NCBI RefSeq assembly: GCF_003334305.1
Contig: NZ_QOWS01000001.1
Source: Escherichia coli
Lineage (GTDB): Bacteria > Pseudomonadota > Gammaproteobacteria > Enterobacterales > Enterobacteriaceae
Strand: one strand, 5' to 3'
DNA: 64,000 nucleotides
Shown here: piece by piece, positions 5,872 to 59,981 of the stretch
How positions within the stretch are numbered: the first letter of the stretch is position 1
How the letters are laid out: each line of letters opens with the position of its first letter
Program-made: the position numbers and the translations under genes
The notes under the pieces: model-generated
Seen by the model: only the letters and a program-made list of their open reading frames with translations
Database searches by the model: none
What the model was told of the DNA's origin: nothing

Positions 5872-7849
5872 GATGGTTTATCCGTAAGATCAACGGTGCG
5901 CAGGAAGAAATCCAGCGTTTCGTCGATGGTTTCCTGCATATCAATTTTCGGCTCCCAGTCCAGGCAGCGGTGGGCATTGCGGATGCTCGGTTTACGATGC
6001 TCTACGTCCTGATATCCTTTGCCGTAGTAGCTGCTACTTTCGACAACGCGAAAGCCCGCAAACGGTGGGAAATGATGGCGCAGCGGATGTTTTTCGAAGC
6101 TCGCCAGCAGCATCTCGCCCAGTTCCTCAATGCTCGCTTCGTTCTCAGGATTGCCAATGTTGATAATTTCACCGTCGCAGCGATTTCCCGCATTTTCGAT
6201 AATGCGGTATAACGCCTCGATACCATCGCGAATATCAGTAAAGCAGCGTTTTTGTTTTCCGCCATCAATCAGCTTAATCGGTGAACCTTCTACCAGATTG
6301 AGAATGAGTTGCGTAATAGCGCGGGAGCTGCCGATTCGTGCCGCATTAAGGTTATCCAGTCGCGGTCCCATCCAGTTAAACGGGCGGAAGAGGGTGAACT
6401 GTAAACCCTCTTTTTCGCCATAGGCCCAGATCACCCGATCAAGTAATTGTTTTGATACCGAATAAATCCAGCGTGGTTTATTCACCGGGCCGACGATTAA
6501 ATTAGAATGGTCCTCATCGAAGTATTTATCGCTACACATCCCATAAACTTCTGAAGTTGACGGGAAGATGATTCGCTTACGGTACTTCACGCAGTAGCGG
6601 ATAATGCGCAGATTCTCTTCAAAATCGAGTTCAAATACGCGCAGCGGGTTGCGGGTATATTCAATCGGCGTGGCTATCGCCACCAGCGGCAAGACGACAT
6701 CACATTTTTTGACATGATACTCAATCCATTCGGAATGAATACTGATATCGCCTTCAACAAAGTGAAAATGCGGATGATTCAGAAAACGGCTTATCGCATC
6801 GCTGCCAATATCCAGACCGTAAACTTCATAATGATCTTCGCGCAGCAGGCGTTCTGTCAGATGGTTGCCAATAAAGCCATTCACCCCGAGGATGAGTACC
6901 CGGGTACGGCGTCGGGCGGTGCAGGCAGGCTGGCTATTCAAGCGTGAACCTTGCACCAGGCCCAGCGTCTGCGCTAATTGCGAGCCCTGCATAGTAATGC
7001 CGTCGCCCGCCTGTCCGGTGACGATTTCCAGCGCGCCATCGCCACAGGCAATCAGCAGTGGCGCAACAGAAATCACGCTCCCCGGCTGTGCTTTGCTGGC
7101 ATGAGGATGAACACGCGACGACCAGACGGTGAATTTCTGATTGCCAACATAGCTGAAGGCACCCGGCCACGGATCGGCAACGGCACGTACCATGTTGTGC
7201 AGTACGGATGCCGGTTTATGCCATTCAAGGAAACTGTCATCCGGCGTTCTGCGACCAAAACAGGTGGCTTCGTTTTCGCGCTGGGCGATTTCCAGAATAT
7301 TACCGTGTTTAATGGCGGGTAATGTCTGTTCCAGTAGCTGGCGCGCGGCATGGCACAATTTATGATGCAGCGTAATAGCGATATCGTCTGGCGCAATGGC
7401 AATGCGCAGTTGCGCCACAATGGCCCCGGCATCGGCACGTTTCACCATTCGGTGCAATGTAACGCCAGTTTCCGTTTCACCGTTGACCAGCACCCAGTTC
7501 AGCGGCGCGCGACCACGATATTTTGGTAACAGCGAACCATGCAGATTAAATGCACCTGCGGGAGCGAGCTGCAAAATTTCGTCGCAAATAAGATGGCGAT
7601 AATAAAAAGAGAAAATCACATCTGGCGACAGTTGGGCAATGCGTTCCACCCACAGCGGATGATTAACGTCATCCGGCGCATAAACCGGAATGCCTCTTTC
7701 CGCTGCCAGACGAGCCACCGAACCATAAAAGGCTTTTTCACCGGGATTATCGGTATGGGTAAAAATGGCGCTAATTTCGTAACCGGCAGCCAGCAGAGCT
7801 TCAATACCGAGGCATCCCATATCGTGGTAGGCAAAAACGACGGTTTTCA

Positions 7850-27516: not shown

Positions 27517-30500
27517 ATGCGGATTATCTTTCTACGCAAGGAGTATTTATCTCTACTCCCGTCAATGATTGCATCTCTTTTCTCTGCTAACGGTGTCGCG
27601 GCGGCCATTGATTTATGCCAGGGATATGATATCAAAGCGAGTTGTCACGCCAGCAGGCAAAGCCTTTCAGGCATTACGCAGGACTGGAGTGTCGCCGATG
27701 GGCAATGGCTGGTTTTTTCGGATATGACCAATAATGCCAGCGGAGGAGCCGTATTTTTGCAACAAGGAGCGGAATTTTCACTATTACCAGAAAATGAAAC
27801 TGGAATGACTCTGTTTGCCAATAACACCGTTACAGGAGAATATAATAACGGCGGGGCCATATTTGCTAAAGAAAACTCAACGCTGAATCTTACTGATGTT
27901 ATTTTTTCCGGTAACGTCGCAGGCGGCTATGGTGGCGCAATCTATTCTTCTGGTACTAACGATACTGGTGCCGTCGATTTACGTGTCACTAACGCCATGT
28001 TTCGCAATAACATCGCTAATGATGGCAAAGGTGGCGCAATTTATACCATTAATAATGACGTTTATTTAAGTGATGTTATTTTTGATAACAACCAGGCATA
28101 TACATCAACAAGTTACAGTGATGGCGATGGCGGGGCAATCGATGTTACCGATAATAATAGCGACAGCAAGCATCCTTCAGGTTATACGATAATAAATAAC
28201 ACTGCCTTTACAAATAACACTGCCGAAGGTTATGGCGGGGCGATATATACCAATAGCGCGACGGCTCCCTATCTTATTGATATTTCTGTTGATGACAGCT
28301 ACAGCCAGAACGGCGGCGTGTTAGTGGATGAGAACAACAGCGCAGCAGGCTATGGAGATGGTCCTTCCACTGCGGCGGGTGGCTTTATGTATCTCGGCTT
28401 AAGTGAAGTTACCTTTGATATTGCCGACGGAAAAACGCTGGTTATTGGCAATACAGAGAATGACGGAGCTGTTGACTCTATTGCTAGTACCGGGTTGATC
28501 ACCAAAACAGGTTCCGGCGATCTGGTACTTAATGCAGATAACAATGACTTTACTGGTGAGATGCAGATTGAAAACGGTGAAGTTACCCTGGGTCGCAGCA
28601 ACTCCCTGATGAATGTCGGCGATACGCATTGCCAGGACGATCCGCAAGACTGCTACGGTCTGACGATAGGGAGTATTGATAAGTACCAGAATCAGGCAGA
28701 GCTAAACGTTGGCTCCACCCAACAAACCTTTGTGCACTCATTGACGGGCTTTCAGAATGGCACTTTAAATATCGATGCTGGTGGCAATGTTACTGTTAAT
28801 CAAGGCAGTTTTGCTGGCACCATCGAAGGTGCTGGTCAGCTCACCATTGCGCAAAACGGCAGCTACGTGCTGTCGGGGGCGCAGTCGATGGCGCTAACCG
28901 GCGATATAGTCGTTGATGATGGTGCGGTGCTTTCGCTGGAAGGCGACGCGGCAGATCTTACCGCTCTCCAGGACGATCCGCAGTCGATCGTGTTAAACGG
29001 CGGTGTGCTCGATCTCTCTGATTTCTCCACCTGGCAGAGTGGCACATCATACAACGATGGCCTTGAAGTCAGCGGCAGCAGCGGAACGGTTATCGGCAGT
29101 CAGGATGTGGTAGATCTTGCAGGTGGAAACGATATGCATATCGGCGGTGACGGGAAAGATGGCGTCTACGTGGTGGTCGATGCGGGCGACGGGCAGGTAA
29201 GTCTGGCAAACAATAATAGTTATTTGGGCACAACACAAATCGCCTCCGGTATGCTGGAGGTGAGCGACAACTCACAGCTTGGAGATACCCACTATAACCG
29301 CCAGGTTATCTTTACCGATAAGCAACAAGAAAGCGTGATGGAGATTACTGCCAATGTCGATACTCGCTCTACGACGACTGAGCATGGGCGTGATATTGAA
29401 ATGCGCGCCGACGGTGAAGTGGCAGTTGATGCGGGGGTAGACACGCAGTGGGGCGCTCTGATGGCTGACAGCAGCGGGCAGCATCAGGATGAGGGTAGCA
29501 CATTGACTAAAACGGGGGCGGGTACGCTGGAGCTGACCGCCAGCGGTACAACGCAGTCGGCGGTACGTGTCGAAGAAGGCACCCTGAAAGGCGATGTCGC
29601 GGATATCCTTCCTTATGCTTCGTCACTGTGGGTCGGTGATGGGGCGACGTTCGTTACTGGCGCGGATCAGGATATTCAGTCTATCGATGCTACTTCCAGC
29701 GGCACTATCGATATCAGCGATGGTACGGTTTTGCGTCTGACCGGGCAGGATACTTCCGTCGCCCTTAATGCCTCATTGTTTAACGGCGATGGGACGCTGG
29801 TGAATGCTACCGATGGCGTGACGTTGACAGGTGAGCTTAATACCAACCTTGAAACTGACAGCCTGACCTATCTTGCCGACGTGACGGTTAATGGTGATCT
29901 GACCAATACGTCCGGTGCGGTTAGCCTGCAAAATGGCGTCGCTGGCGATACGCTGACGGTAAACGGTGATTATACCGGCGGCGGTACGCTACTGTTCGAC
30001 AGCGAATTAAACGGCGATGACTCGGTAAGCGATCAATTGGTGATGAACGGTAATACTGCTGGCAACACAACTGTGGTGGTTAACTCCATTACAGGGATTG
30101 GTGAGCCGACATCGACAGGCATTAAAGTGGTTGATTTCGCAGCTGATCCCACGCAGTTTCAAAACAATGCACAGTTCAGTCTGGCTGGCAGTGGCTACGT
30201 CAACATGGGAGCGTATGACTACACGCTAGTGGAAGATAACAACGACTGGTATCTGCGATCGCAAGAAGTAACGCCGCCATCGCCACCTGATCCAGACCCT
30301 GACCCAACACCCGATCCTGACCCAACACCCGATCCAATCCCCGCTTACCAGCCGGTGCTGAATGCCAAAGTTGGCGGTTATCGCAATAATCTGCGGGCGG
30401 CAAATCAGGCGTTTATGATGGAGCGACGCGATCATGCAGGTGGCAATGGTCAGACGCTGAATTTACGTGTTATCGGCGGACGTTATCATTACACGGCGGC

Positions 30501-31251
30501 AGGGCAACTGGCTCAGCATGAAGACACTTCTACGGTGCAGCTTAGCGGTGACCTGTTTAGCGGGCGCTGGGGCGATGATGGCGAGTGGATGCTTGGGGCG
30601 GTTGGTGGCTACAGTGATAATCAGGGCGAGAGCCGCTCGAATATGACCGGAACTCGCGCCGATAACCAGAACCACGGTTATGCCGTTGGGCTGACCTCAA
30701 GCTGGTATCAGCACGGTAATCAGAAGCAGGGGGCCTGGCTGGATAGCTGGCTGCAATACGCGTGGTTTAACAATGATGTTTCCGAACAAGACGATGGCAC
30801 AGATCATTACCACTCGTCGGGGATTATCGCCTCGCTGGAAGCCGGGTATCAGTGGTTACCGGGGCGTGGTGTGGTGATTGAACCGCAGGCGCAGGTGATT
30901 TATCAGGGCGTGCAGCAGGATGATTTTACCGCCGCTAACCATGCGCGCGTGTCACAATCGCAGGGGGATGATATTCAGACGCGGCTGGGTTTACACAGCG
31001 AATGGCGTACCGCGGTTGGTGTCACACCAACATTAGATCTGAATTATTATCACGATCCCCATGCGACGGAAATTGAAGAAGATGGCAGCACTATCAGTGA
31101 CGATGCGGTGAAGCGACGGGGTGAAATAAAAGTGGGAGTCACGGGCAATATCAGTCAGCGAGTGTCCCTGCGCGGCAGCGTGGCGTGGCAGAAAGGGAGT
31201 GATGATTTTGCCCAGACGGCAGGGTTTTTGTCGATGACGGTGAAATGGTAA
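27517..31251 (+). CDS. yfaL: AIDA-I-type autotransporter adhesin YfaL (1244 aa)
   Basis: N-terminal signal peptide, repeated GGAIY/GGAI passenger motifs (beta-helix), Pro/Asp/Thr linker, C-terminal beta-barrel ending in W. Confidence 0.92.
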   Translation: MRIIFLRKEYLSLLPSMIASLFSANGVAAAIDLCQGYDIKASCHASRQSLSGITQDWSVADGQWLVFSDMTNNASGGAVFLQQGAEFSLLPENETGMTLFANNTVTGEYNNGGAIFAKENSTLNLTDVIFSGNVAGGYGGAIYSSGTNDTGAVDLRVTNAMFRNNIANDGKGGAIYTINNDVYLSDVIFDNNQAYTSTSYSDGDGGAIDVTDNNSDSKHPSGYTIINNTAFTNNTAEGYGGAIYTNSATAPYLIDISVDDSYSQNGGVLVDENNSAAGYGDGPSTAAGGFMYLGLSEVTFDIADGKTLVIGNTENDGAVDSIASTGLITKTGSGDLVLNADNNDFTGEMQIENGEVTLGRSNSLMNVGDTHCQDDPQDCYGLTIGSIDKYQNQAELNVGSTQQTFVHSLTGFQNGTLNIDAGGNVTVNQGSFAGTIEGAGQLTIAQNGSYVLSGAQSMALTGDIVVDDGAVLSLEGDAADLTALQDDPQSIVLNGGVLDLSDFSTWQSGTSYNDGLEVSGSSGTVIGSQDVVDLAGGNDMHIGGDGKDGVYVVVDAGDGQVSLANNNSYLGTTQIASGMLEVSDNSQLGDTHYNRQVIFTDKQQESVMEITANVDTRSTTTEHGRDIEMRADGEVAVDAGVDTQWGALMADSSGQHQDEGSTLTKTGAGTLELTASGTTQSAVRVEEGTLKGDVADILPYASSLWVGDGATFVTGADQDIQSIDATSSGTIDISDGTVLRLTGQDTSVALNASLFNGDGTLVNATDGVTLTGELNTNLETDSLTYLADVTVNGDLTNTSGAVSLQNGVAGDTLTVNGDYTGGGTLLFDSELNGDDSVSDQLVMNGNTAGNTTVVVNSITGIGEPTSTGIKVVDFAADPTQFQNNAQFSLAGSGYVNMGAYDYTLVEDNNDWYLRSQEVTPPSPPDPDPDPTPDPDPTPDPIPAYQPVLNAKVGGYRNNLRAANQAFMMERRDHAGGNGQTLNLRVIGGRYHYTAAGQLAQHEDTSTVQLSGDLFSGRWGDDGEWMLGAVGGYSDNQGESRSNMTGTRADNQNHGYAVGLTSSWYQHGNQKQGAWLDSWLQYAWFNNDVSEQDDGTDHYHSSGIIASLEAGYQWLPGRGVVIEPQAQVIYQGVQQDDFTAANHARVSQSQGDDIQTRLGLHSEWRTAVGVTPTLDLNYYHDPHATEIEEDGSTISDDAVKRRGEIKVGVTGNISQRVSLRGSVAWQKGSDDFAQTAGFLSMTVKW
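30286..30340 (+). repeat. tandem 18-bp repeat cctgacccaacacccgat (x2 plus degenerate copy) encoding PDPDPT linker
   Basis: Perfect copies at 30298..30315 and 30316..30333, confirmed by periodicity in the antisense ORF (IGCWVR x2). Confidence 0.8.
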
Positions 31252-35023: not shown

Positions 35024-41870
<6,847 letters not shown>

Positions 41871-43524: not shown

Positions 43525-44301
43525 ATGCGAAAGATTTTTCTTCCGTTGTTACTGGTGGCACTTTCGCCTGTCGTTCACAGTGAAGGTGTGCAGGAAGTCG
43601 AGATTGACGCACCGCTCTCTGGCTGGCATCCGGCAGAGGGCGAAGATGCCAGTTTTTCACAATCGATCAATTACCCGGCGTCGTCCGTCAACATGGCAGA
43701 TGATCAAAATATCTCAGCGCAGATCCGCGGCAAAATAAAGAATTATGCTGCGGCGGGTAAAGTTCAGCAGGGCCGGCTGGTGGTCAACGGTGCCAGTATG
43801 CCGCAGAGAGTTGAATCCGATGGTTCATTTGCACGCCCTTATATTTTCACTGAAGGCAGCAACAGCGTGCAGGTCATCAGCCCGGATGGGCAAAGCCGAC
43901 AAAAAATGCAGTTTTACTCAATGCCGGGTACAGGAACGATTCGTGCACGTTTACGGCTAGTTCTCTCGTGGGATACGGACAATACCGATCTCGATCTCCA
44001 TGTTGTCACGCCCGATGGCGAACACGCCTGGTACGGTAACACCGTGCTGAAAAACAGTGGTGCACTGGATATGGATGTCACGACGGGGTACGGACCCGAG
44101 ATTTTCGCCATGCCAGCACCAGTTCACGGGCGCTATCAGGTGTATATCAACTACTATGGTGGGCGCAGCGAAACGGAATTGACGACCGCCCAACTGACGC
44201 TGATCACCGATGAAGGATCGGTCAATGAGAAACAGGAAACATTTATTGTACCGATGCGTAATGCTGGCGAGCTGACGCTGGTGAAAAGTTTTGACTGGTG
44301 A
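43525..44301 (+). CDS. yfaP: DUF2135-family secreted protein YfaP (258 aa)
   Basis: Signal peptide MRKIFLPLLLVALSPVVHS; 4-nt gap after yfaQ. Confidence 0.85.
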   Translation: MRKIFLPLLLVALSPVVHSEGVQEVEIDAPLSGWHPAEGEDASFSQSINYPASSVNMADDQNISAQIRGKIKNYAAAGKVQQGRLVVNGASMPQRVESDGSFARPYIFTEGSNSVQVISPDGQSRQKMQFYSMPGTGTIRARLRLVLSWDTDNTDLDLHVVTPDGEHAWYGNTVLKNSGALDMDVTTGYGPEIFAMPAPVHGRYQVYINYYGGRSETELTTAQLTLITDEGSVNEKQETFIVPMRNAGELTLVKSFDW

Positions 44302-44355
44302 TCCATCCCTTCACACAACCTGGCTCTCTCTTTTTTCAGATAAGACTGCTGGGCG

Positions 44356-44399
44356 ATCTGCCGACGCCAGGATATAACCATTAACAAGCGTCGGCAGAT
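44356..44399. other. 12-bp perfect inverted repeat hairpin (atctgccgacgc ... gcgtcggcagat, 20-nt loop) in yfaP-rcsC intergenic region
   Basis: Coordinates confirmed by offset from yfaP stop; lies where K-12 carries the ato operon. Confidence 0.6.
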
Positions 44400-44575
44400 T
44401 GGTCATTTCTTATTTTTCGTACTGAGAACTGTCCATCTACTCCGGCTTTCCTGGTTAAGGCAATGGTTTCTAAGCGATACGCATTATTGCAATGGTGACA
44501 GAACATTGCGGTAACACGCTTTTACCGCTACCTTAACCACACTCCATCGGTCACCTGAGGCGGAGCTTCGCCCCT

Positions 44576-47414
44576 TTGAAATACCTTGCTTCTTTTCGTA
44601 CAACCCTGAAAGCCTCGCGCTACATGTTCAGAGCATTGGCGTTAGTGCTCTGGCTGTTGATTGCTTTTTCATCCGTTTTTTACATCGTTAATGCGTTACA
44701 TCAGCGAGAATCGGAAATTCGTCAGGAATTTAATCTGAGTTCCGATCAGGCTCAGCGCTTTATTCAACGCACCTCTGATGTGATGAAAGAGCTGAAGTAC
44801 ATCGCCGAAAATCGCTTATCGGCAGAAAACGGTGTGCTTTCCCCGCGTGGACGAGAAACGCAGGCGGATGTGCCTGCGTTTGAACCGCTGTTTGCCGACT
44901 CCGATTGTTCCGCAATGAGTAACACCTGGCGAGGTTCTCTGGAGTCATTGGCGTGGTTTATGCGCTACTGGCGCGATAATTTTTCTGCGGCTTACGATCT
45001 CAACCGGGTATTTTTAATCGGCAGTGATAACCTCTGCATGGCCAATTTCGGTCTGCGTGATATGCCAGTGGAACGCGATACCGCGTTGAAAGCTTTGCAT
45101 GAACGCATCAATAAATATCGAAATGCACCACAAGATGATAGCGGCAGTAACCTCTACTGGATCAGCGAAGGTCCGCGCCCTGGCGTCGGGTATTTTTACG
45201 CGTTGACGCCAGTTTATCTGGCGAACCGGTTGCAGGCGCTTTTGGGTGTCGAGCAGACCATCCGGATGGAGAACTTTTTCTTACCGGGTACGTTGCCGAT
45301 GGGGGTTACCATTCTTGATGAAAATGGTCATACCCTGATTTCGCTTACCGGACCAGAAAGTAAAATTAAGGGCGATCCTCGCTGGATGCAGGAACGCTCC
45401 TGGTTTGGCTATACGGAAGGGTTCCGGGAGCTGGTGCTGAAGAAAAATCTGCCACCCTCATCGCTAAGCATCGTGTATTCGGTGCCGGTTGATAAGGTGC
45501 TGGAACGCATTCGCATGTTGATCCTTAACGCAATTTTGCTGAATGTGCTTGCCGGAGCTGCATTGTTTACTCTCGCACGGATGTACGAGCGACGTATTTT
45601 CATTCCGGCGGAAAGCGACGCCCTGCGACTGGAAGAACATGAGCAGTTCAATCGCAAGATTGTCGCCTCCGCGCCAGTGGGTATCTGCATTTTGCGTACC
45701 GCTGATGGCGTCAATATTTTAAGTAACGAACTGGCGCATACCTATCTCAATATGCTTACGCATGAGGACCGCCAACGACTGACGCAAATTATCTGTGGGC
45801 AGCAGGTCAATTTTGTTGATGTCCTGACCAGCAACAATACCAATCTGCAAATCAGCTTCGTCCATTCGCGCTATCGTAATGAAAACGTGGCCATTTGTGT
45901 GCTGGTGGATGTTTCTTCGCGCGTGAAGATGGAAGAGTCGTTGCAGGAGATGGCACAAGCAGCGGAACAGGCGAGCCAGTCAAAATCGATGTTCCTTGCC
46001 ACCGTCAGTCATGAGCTGCGAACGCCGCTGTATGGCATTATCGGTAACCTGGATCTGTTGCAAACCAAAGAGTTACCGAAAGGCGTCGATCGGCTGGTGA
46101 CGGCAATGAACAACTCTTCCAGCCTGTTGTTGAAAATTATCAGCGATATTCTCGATTTCTCGAAGATTGAATCGGAACAGTTGAAGATCGAACCGCGTGA
46201 GTTTTCACCGCGTGAAGTGATGAACCACATCACCGCCAACTATTTACCGCTGGTGGTACGCAAGCAGTTAGGCTTGTACTGCTTTATTGAACCGGATGTG
46301 CCAGTGGCCTTAAATGGCGACCCGATGCGTTTACAGCAGGTCATCTCCAACCTGTTGAGTAACGCCATAAAATTCACCGATACCGGCTGTATAGTTTTGC
46401 ATGTCCGCGCTGATGGCGATTATCTCTCTATCCGTGTTCGCGATACCGGCGTGGGGATTCCGGCGAAAGAAGTGGTGCGCTTGTTTGATCCCTTCTTCCA
46501 GGTCGGAACGGGCGTACAGCGAAACTTCCAGGGGACCGGTCTGGGTCTGGCGATTTGTGAAAAACTGATCAGCATGATGGACGGCGATATCTCGGTAGAT
46601 TCAGAACCGGGAATGGGCAGCCAGTTTACCGTGCGTATTCCGTTGTACGGCGCTCAGTACCCGCAGAAAAAAGGCGTGGAAGGGTTGAGTGGTAAACGCT
46701 GCTGGCTGGCGGTCCGCAATGCGTCGCTCTGTCAGTTCCTGGAAACCAGTTTGCAGCGCAGCGGCATCGTCGTTACAACATACGAAGGGCAGGAACCGAC
46801 TCCCGAAGATGTGTTAATTACTGACGAGGTAGTGAGTAAAAAATGGCAGGGTAGAGCGGTAGTGACCTTCTGTCGTCGCCATATTGGTATTCCGCTGGAG
46901 AAAGCGCCAGGGGAGTGGGTACACAGTGTGGCTGCCCCGCATGAGCTACCGGCATTGTTGGCGCGTATTTATTTGATCGAGATGGAGAGCGACGATCCTG
47001 CTAACGCTCTGCCGTCGACGGACAAAGCGGTCAGCGATAATGACGATATGATGATTCTGGTCGTGGATGATCATCCGATTAACCGACGTCTGCTGGCAGA
47101 TCAGTTGGGATCGTTGGGCTATCAATGTAAAACCGCGAATGATGGTGTCGATGCGCTTAATGTACTTAGCAAGAATCATATTGATATCGTGCTTAGCGAC
47201 GTCAACATGCCAAATATGGATGGTTACCGCTTGACGCAACGCATTCGTCAGTTGGGACTGACGTTGCCGGTAATCGGAGTAACTGCTAATGCGTTGGCTG
47301 AAGAGAAGCAGCGGTGTCTGGAGTCCGGTATGGACAGCTGCCTGTCGAAGCCGGTAACGCTGGATGTGATAAAACAGACGCTGACGGTATATGCCGAGAG
47401 GGTCAGGAAATCGC

Positions 47415-47425
<11 letters not shown>
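44576..47425 (+). CDS. rcsC: hybrid sensor histidine kinase RcsC (949 aa, TTG start)
   Basis: MKYLASFRTTLK N-terminus, HisKA/HATPase motifs, C-terminal receiver domain (VVDDHPINRRLL...DVNMPNMDG). Confidence 0.96.
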
Positions 47426-47618
<193 letters not shown>

Positions 47619-51275: not shown

Positions 51276-51368
51276 AAAAAAAACCGAATGCGAGGCATCC
51301 GGTTGAAATAGGGGTAAACAGACATTCAGAAATGAATGACGGTAATAAATAAAGTTAATGATGATAGC
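51276..51368 (-). ncRNA. micF: MicF antisense sRNA (93 nt)
   Basis: Reverse complement reads GCTATCATCATTAACTTTATTTATTACCGTCATTCATTTCTGAATGTCTGTTTACCCCTATTTCAACCGGATGCCTCGCATTCGGTTTTTTTT, with terminal hairpin and U-run; divergent from ompC. Confidence 0.95.
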
Positions 51369-52806
<1,438 letters not shown>

Positions 52807-59492: not shown

Positions 59493-59981
59493 TTAGCGAA
59501 CTACCGCGTTGTCAATTTTCTCTTCCGCCTTCCAGACGCGGTACTTCACATCTACATTGTCTGGCGTATACACCACGATCGGCAGCTTGCTGTTGTAACG
59601 CAGCATTCCAGCATCGCCCAGATACGCGGTGACAAATTTCTTCTCTTTCTTGCCATCCGGGCAGGCCATCATCGTCGAAACCGGGGAACTGACTTTATCA
59701 AAGACATAATAATCATAGCCCCAGCCTTCCAGCGTTTTGTTTTCCAGCTTCCCGCCGAGACGATGCAAATTGCAATCGACTTCCAGCGTCTGACCGATTA
59801 ACAGTTCTACTTTCAGGGTAGATTCATCTTCTTGCGGGGTTAACTGAATCACCTGACGCTTCATCCCTTTTTCAGCTTGTGGATAAGGCGCGATTTTTTC
59901 CAGTGGCTGGACGCTTTCTGCCGCCCAGGCGGAAGTGGTAGCGAAAGCGGCAAACAATACTGCAGGTAGAATGGTCTTCAT
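59493..59981 (-). CDS. eco: ecotin, periplasmic serine protease inhibitor (162 aa)
   Basis: Start [20 protein letters not shown] at residue 8 of track ORF. Confidence 0.95.

Follow-up and report, generated by a model that had tools for sequence, protein, structure and literature searches.

The yfaL (ehaC) gene of Escherichia coli can carry two head-to-tail copies of an 18-bp unit in the part that encodes a proline-rich linker of this autotransporter. Such an array raises the question whether the number of copies changes in natural populations and, if so, whether the changes switch the gene, adjust its product under selection or simply drift. We analyzed the array in a 64-kb stretch of E. coli DNA (64,000 nucleotides; hereafter, the window) and in the alleles of complete E. 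coli genomes.

The identity of the gene is supported by its sequence and by its position. The product matches the NCBIfam equivalog model NF007285 with 2780.6 bits (cut-off 1459) over residues 1-1244 of 1244, as expected of a yfaL/ehaC orthologue, and RefSeq annotates the same DNA as yfaL in 5,420 of the 5,426 complete E. coli genomes; both results uphold the gene name given in a preliminary description of this DNA. The gene is flanked by nrdA (minus strand) on one side and by ubiG (minus strand) and gyrA (plus strand) on the other, as in K-12 (NCBIfam). The order nrdA, yfaL, ubiG, gyrA is common to the window, K-12 DH1 and 20 other genomes, and the farther neighbours, yfaA and onward to rcsC, rcsD and ompC, are also those of K-12.

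Several other features of the window are recorded here. The atoSC-atoDAEB operon is absent: only 275 bp (44301-44576) lie between the yfaP-like open reading frame and rcsC, where K-12 DH1 has ~7.3 kb between yfaP and rcsC. The alpha-2-macroglobulin-like gene in the yfaS position (37251-41870) is an intact open reading frame of 1539 codons, while an internal stop interrupts its K-12 DH1 counterpart, annotated as a pseudogene; no NCBIfam model matched this reading frame at E <= 1e-20. Two RNA features were identified with Rfam.

47425-47615, plus strand: two adjacent matches to naRNA4 (REP-type), just past rcsC
51276-51369, minus strand: MicF small RNA, 114 bits, upstream of ompC

Within yfaL itself, no Rfam match was found, and the list of open reading frames of the window contains no antisense frame of 100 or more amino acids. 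The coding sequence and the domains of its product are the following.

27517-31251, plus strand: yfaL/ehaC coding sequence for a type Va autotransporter adhesin, 1244 amino acids plus stop (open reading frame list, NCBIfam, RefSeq)
27814-28392, plus strand: N-terminal passenger with PMP-type repeats, residues ~100-292 (motif scan, TIGR01376, Pfam)
29896-30258, plus strand: autochaperone or pertactin-like C-terminal end of the passenger, residues 794-914 (Pfam AC_1, Pertactin)
30274-30342, plus strand: spacer rich in Pro, Asp and Thr, PPSPPDPDPDPTPDPDPTPDPIP, residues 920-942 (translation, composition)
30364-30408, plus strand: predicted alpha-helix through the barrel pore, residues 950-964 (AlphaFold model, helix 160-174 of the fragment)
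30454-31248, plus strand: outer-membrane beta-barrel translocator, residues ~980-1244 (Pfam PF03797, TIGR01414, AlphaFold)

The passenger contains six motifs of the GGAI(Y/F/D) type between residues ~100 and 292, each preceded by FxxN. The TIGR01376 model (POMP_repeat) reaches 40 bits (cut-off 15), and the Pfam matches to Chlam_PMP are mostly weak. According to Pfam the passenger repeats are of the PMP and PATR types, and the same scan found no AIDA repeat family. The AIDA-I model NF033176 (auto_AIDA-I) yields 67 bits against a cut-off of 1200, which places the passenger outside the AIDA type. The GGAIY-type motifs noted in the preliminary description are therefore real, but they resemble those of Chlamydia PMP proteins and are not the repeats of self-associating autotransporters; the proposal of a self-associating adhesin is not borne out. 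YfaL has been classified in group 8 with MisL, ShdA, IcsA and EhaA (PMC9289746). Constitutive expression of yfaL increases biofilm formation, and this phenotype requires the artificial constitutive expression (PMC3764049), while yfaL mutants of O157:H7 lose adherence to HEp-2 cells (PMC7864753). Autoaggregation or self-association by YfaL was not found in this literature, which reports biofilm formation and HEp-2 adherence.

The spacer lies between the passenger and the translocator, as had been proposed from the DNA, and Pfam boundaries, structural homology and a structural model agree on this placement. The matches to PF18883 AC_1 (4.6e-18) and PF03212 Pertactin (2e-08) both end at residue ~914, and a WYLRS motif follows at residues 911-915. 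On the other side, the barrel domain PF03797 (4e-34) starts at residue 983, TIGR01414 scores 374 bits, and the region homologous to the AIDA-I transport unit 4MEE has Y944, directly after the proline-rich stretch, as its first residue. The AlphaFold model (residues 791-1244, alignment of 17 sequences, mean pLDDT 80) has beta-strands up to residue ~917, then coil without regular secondary structure at residues 919-945 (pLDDT below 50), followed by the helix at 950-964 and by the barrel strands, with pLDDT mostly 80-97. The product thus combines the two features of type Va autotransporters, a beta-barrel with a preceding pore-spanning helix and an autochaperone or pertactin-like domain at the C-terminus of the passenger. 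The spacer, 23 residues with 57% Pro and six Asp, is predicted to be a tether that joins the folded passenger to the helix plugging the barrel.

The repeat units within the spacer were read directly and, for the full units, also detected by Tandem Repeats Finder.

30286-30297, plus strand: truncated degenerate copy, CCTGATCCAGAC, 12 nt, encoding PDPD
30298-30315, plus strand: repeat unit 1, CCTGACCCAACACCCGAT
30316-30333, plus strand: repeat unit 2, CCTGACCCAACACCCGAT, identical to unit 1 at every base

Tandem Repeats Finder reports the array at 30298-30335 with period 18, 2.1 copies, 100% matches and score 76. It is one of two arrays with a score of at least 50 in the window and the sole perfect one; the other, at 59975-60014, is weak, with 1.9 copies of a 21-bp unit (78% identity, score 52). 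The chance of a perfect 18-nt tandem copy is ~4^-18 per position, and hence 64 kb should contain none by chance, even with the codon bias of Pro and Asp. The frame of the yfaL reading frame across the array is ...WYLRSQEVTPPSPPDPDPDPTPDPDPTPDPIPAYQP..., each unit encoding PDPDPT, so that this hexapeptide is encoded twice in frame; the translated stretch, ...DWYLRSQEVTPPSPPDPDPDPTPDPDPTPDPIPAYQPVLN..., is exactly the peptide quoted previously. The sequence at 30286-30297 shares 8 of its 12 bases with the beginning of the unit. The two perfect copies of the preliminary description are thus confirmed, while its degenerate upstream copy is a truncated piece of 12 nt and not a full unit.

To describe copy numbers we used 5,426 complete E. 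coli genomes, a sample clonally biased towards STEC and clinical isolates. Queries comprised exact matches filtered by E-value and 32-nt junction sequences lacking any 28-mer common to other copy numbers. The counts were as follows.

Two copies, exact 48-mer (6-nt flank, two units, 6-nt flank): 990 genomes
Two copies including near-exact forms: about 1,180 genomes (1,189 matches minus the ten three-copy genomes)
One copy, exact junction: 16 genomes
One copy, CCG variant of the unit: 6 genomes
Exactly three copies: 10 genomes
Four copies: none of the 5,426 genomes

The number of units is therefore not invariant among strains: one, two and three copies occur in 22, about 1,180 and 10 genomes, respectively. 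Unit 2 (30316-30333) is gone in the one-copy alleles and duplicated once more in the three-copy alleles. The variants amount to 32 of ~1,210 genomes of the window allele type (~2.6%), a frequency that is not a population estimate because of the clonal bias of the collection, and each of them differs by a single unit. One candidate one-copy allele, that of TUM11353 (31 of 32 positions at the junction), proved to have two copies with a GAC variant and was left out of the count.

In 20 retrieved alleles the linkers differ from that of the window by clean whole units, with the exception of GPEC60-12-649. All retrieved one- and three-copy alleles are in frame through the linker, with tethers of 17, 23 or 29 residues for one, two or three copies. 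The allele of GPEC60-12-649 has a 7-bp tandem duplication (TGACCCA) in unit 1 (window 30300-30306), which causes a frameshift, and is annotated as a frameshifted pseudogene; the duplication may reflect true slippage or a mistake in the assembly. The three-copy yfaL of OkiPb01681 also carries a pseudogene annotation, with an internal stop in another part of the gene.

Recurrence of the changes was assessed from the flanking sequences of 21 alleles, compared at 5,916 ungapped sites with the linker masked. The one-copy strain O111:H8 TW05614 and the two-copy strain O111:H- 11128 have no differences at these 5,916 sites. The three-copy strain 2313 has 2-3 flank differences from two-copy O26 and O111 strains, and three-copy VG35A2 has 3-5 from one-copy 2012EL-2448 and O91:H21 FWSEC0008. 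The alleles of MDP9-27, MLI107, YZLc4-1, OkiPb01681, the RM11911 group, the SMN152SH1 group and HCP6S3_I2 are each on their own flank type, at a distance of 22 to more than 200 differing sites from the others. Altogether, copy-number variants are found on at least nine distinct flank backgrounds. Judged from these sequences, this distribution implies six putatively independent gains and three to five putatively independent losses, at least nine events in all. For the one-copy alleles carrying the CCG unit (the SMN152SH1 group and HCP6S3_I2), the single copy could be the ancestral state and not the result of a deletion. In the three-copy allele of the RM11911 type, a diverged first unit is followed by two identical units, and therefore the identical unit is the one that duplicates.

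Indels are otherwise confined to two sites in the same ~6-kb alignment of the 21 sequences: a 13-bp indel in the yfaL-ubiG intergenic region (window ~31365), present in 5 of the 21 compared strains, and a 3-bp in-frame insertion in the barrel-coding part (window ~30573) of the SMN152SH1/2014C-3011 allele. Identical head-to-tail units with recurrent whole-unit differences among near-identical haplotypes are the marks of a variable-number tandem repeat (VNTR). Since the changes are of whole units, occur on near-identical flanks and apparently arose in at least nine independent events, we consider the array a genuine low-rate slippage site. The preliminary description had expected a hotspot of slipped-strand length variation; copy number does vary on near-identical flanks, but at a low rate (~2.6%, one to three copies) that does not make the array hypermutable.

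The linker varies more widely across E. coli. The K-12-type linker, PPSPPDPDPTPDPDPTPDPDPTPDPEPTP, is 18 bp longer than that of the window allele and ends with DPEPTP, whereas the window linker ends with DPIP. It contains three to four copies at the protein level, which carry synonymous differences and of which none are identical in DNA. This synonymous divergence indicates an older array that has lost its substrate for slippage. In an evenly spaced sample of matches, ~65% have the K-12 length (window plus 18 bp), ~22% the window length, ~8% the K-12 length plus 6 bp and ~3% the K-12 length minus 24 bp, and a few have even longer linkers. Across E. coli there are at least six linker length classes. 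No length variant was seen among the evenly sampled matches with at least 98.8% identity, which number only 23.

A protein homologue search retrieved mainly fragments of E. coli and Shigella YfaL and a handful of distant homologues. The latter (an E. coli paralogue and proteins from Citrobacter, Stenotrophomonas and metagenomes) have stretches of the PDPT, PEPT, PVDP or PGPG type, 15-64 residues long, in the same place between W-Y-L-(R/T/S)-S and (Y/L)-R-P-E. A tether of variable length, usually rich in proline, is therefore a trait of the subfamily.

Larger changes of the linker region were also observed. In E. coli VTB97022v, yfaL has a 168-bp in-frame deletion (window ~30130-30300) between two copies of the 11-nt sequence CTGATCCCACG, which is found once in the autochaperone domain (FAADPTQ) and once in the K-12-type linker; the deletion takes away the last part of the autochaperone domain together with the WYL motif and the first repeat of the linker. 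In a metagenomic protein, a different deletion joins GAYDYT to PAYQP, and the whole linker is gone. Many partial YfaL records from Shigella sonnei draft contigs, some representing hundreds of sequences, break inside the linker (window ~30300-30345). The N-terminal fragments stop at ...PDPDPTPDP and the C-terminal ones begin with APTPAYQP, with ~15 nt of linker absent between them. These draft contigs suggest an insertion at the S. sonnei yfaL linker, probably of an IS element.

The array is, with high probability, a small in-frame VNTR in the YfaL/EhaC spacer that gains and loses units by slipped-strand mispairing, with near-neutral drift of length and no switch. The window allele type would have been born by duplication of the 18-bp unit encoding PDPDPT. 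During replication, the nascent strand may then mispair by exactly one unit, which is possible because both copies are identical at every base, and would thereby lose a unit (from two to one) or gain one (from two to three). Slipped-strand mispairing appears to be the most likely mechanism given the pattern of the variants; unequal recombination between sister chromosomes would be expected to give the same products. Each change is of 18 bp, or six codons, which preserves the reading frame and would alter just the length of a flexible or extended tether, acidic and rich in proline. An extended polyproline II helix has a rise of about 3.1 Angstrom per residue; if the tether adopts this form, each unit would add roughly 1.9 nm. 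The length of the spacer would be loosely constrained and drift near-neutrally, where neutrality is our assumption, as a trait of the whole autotransporter subfamily. Some of the length changes could nevertheless have been selected, given that yfaL is listed among the positively selected genes of E. coli (PMC9110714).

A stronger role for selection is an unlikely reading. Here the length of the linker would be under adaptive tuning, for example so that the passenger reaches beyond O-antigen or capsule layers of differing thickness, or would serve antigenic variation of a surface-exposed epitope, an idea put forward earlier for the proline-rich repeat regions of pertactin. Gains and losses do recur on many backgrounds, E. 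coli has at least six linker length classes and homologues a wide range of spacers, and the listing of yfaL as positively selected (PMC9110714) and the different numbers of proline-rich repeats in pertactin alleles (PMC8931430) point the same way. However, only 32 of ~1,210 genomes carry a variant, always of one unit more or less, no lineage shows an expansion, and no association with serotype or source is apparent. Moreover, an internal stop makes one of the three-copy alleles a pseudogene, which suggests drift, and the biofilm phenotype of yfaL depends on artificial constitutive expression (PMC3764049). It is just as doubtful that the tether is a selectable "length dial" on which recurrent gain and loss of PDPDPT, along with the six or more linker length classes of E. 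coli, set passenger projection through the O-antigen or capsule layer or vary an exposed epitope; were this true, copy number would track the type of surface glycan or the host.

Errors in public genomes are a much less probable source of the differences in copy number. Repeats can be mis-assembled, the polishing quality of some "complete" WGS chromosomes is unknown, and the 7-bp insertion of GPEC60-12-649 might be such an error. An array of 36-54 bp is, however, far below any read length, and the alleles differ by exact whole units. One variant recurs in the separately sequenced relatives RM11911, RM13745 and RM13752, another is common to the separately sequenced SMN152SH1, SMN013SH2, SMN197SH3 and 2014C-3011, and the one-copy form is also present in independent protein records. 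Least probable of all, and highly so, is a phase-variable contingency locus at which slippage turns the expression of YfaL on and off. A tandem repeat in the gene of a surface adhesin would suit such a locus, and the 7-bp duplication in the first unit of GPEC60-12-649 does shift the frame, but that is a different, single event in one assembly. A change in the copy number of a contingency locus shifts the reading frame or the promoter spacing. In yfaL the unit of 18 bp is a multiple of three, all 32 copy-number variants are in frame, and known contingency loci have many more copies than two. Gain or loss of a six-codon unit cannot switch expression, and the array is not a contingency locus. The slipped-strand VNTR with near-neutral drift remains our preferred explanation.

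The repeat is a real but ordinary small length polymorphism, with no new system or mechanism. A short perfect repeat in the spacer of a known adhesin varies in nature, which is of little importance beyond bookkeeping. The locus is a possible minor marker for strain typing within B1/STEC-type lineages. The tethers of 17, 23 and 29 residues form a natural series for relating spacer length to autotransporter display; YfaL as a surface-display scaffold is attributed to Ko et al. 2012, as cited in PMC9289746. A literature search for yfaL as a tandem repeat, MLVA or VNTR locus, for the unit sequence and for PDPDPT found no paper on this repeat within the searchable library. The gene, its architecture and the general phenomenon are already known, and the census is a small new fact on a known kind of thing.

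Among known systems, YfaL/EhaC of K-12 and O157:H7 (NF007285) is the same gene at the same locus between nrdA and ubiG-gyrA, with the same order of PMP-type/PATR repeats, autochaperone, proline-rich spacer, helix and barrel. The K-12-type allele differs in having the linker longer by 18 bp with copies that are not identical in DNA, whereas the two copies in the window allele are identical. The helix and barrel of the AIDA-I transport unit 4MEE are homologous to those of YfaL (E = 1.1e-28), and the match opens at YQP/YRP, right behind the spacer. In contrast, the passenger of YfaL is not AIDA-like, and no homology was detected across the spacer itself.

The closest described parallel to the YfaL repeat is provided by the proline-rich repeat regions (R1/R2) of Bordetella pertactin, likewise a classical autotransporter, whose copy number differs among alleles and changes slowly between strains, not within an infection (PMC8931430). 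The pertactin repeats are described as large loops of the beta-helix passenger (PMC8931430), whereas the YfaL repeat is part of the tether that follows the autochaperone domain; the units also have different sequences, and for YfaL there is no evidence of immune selection. With the short in-frame VNTRs of bacterial surface proteins, the YfaL array has in common identical head-to-tail units, gain and loss of whole units and recurrence on unrelated backgrounds. It differs from them in being very small (one to three copies) and in its low frequency of variants (~2.6%).
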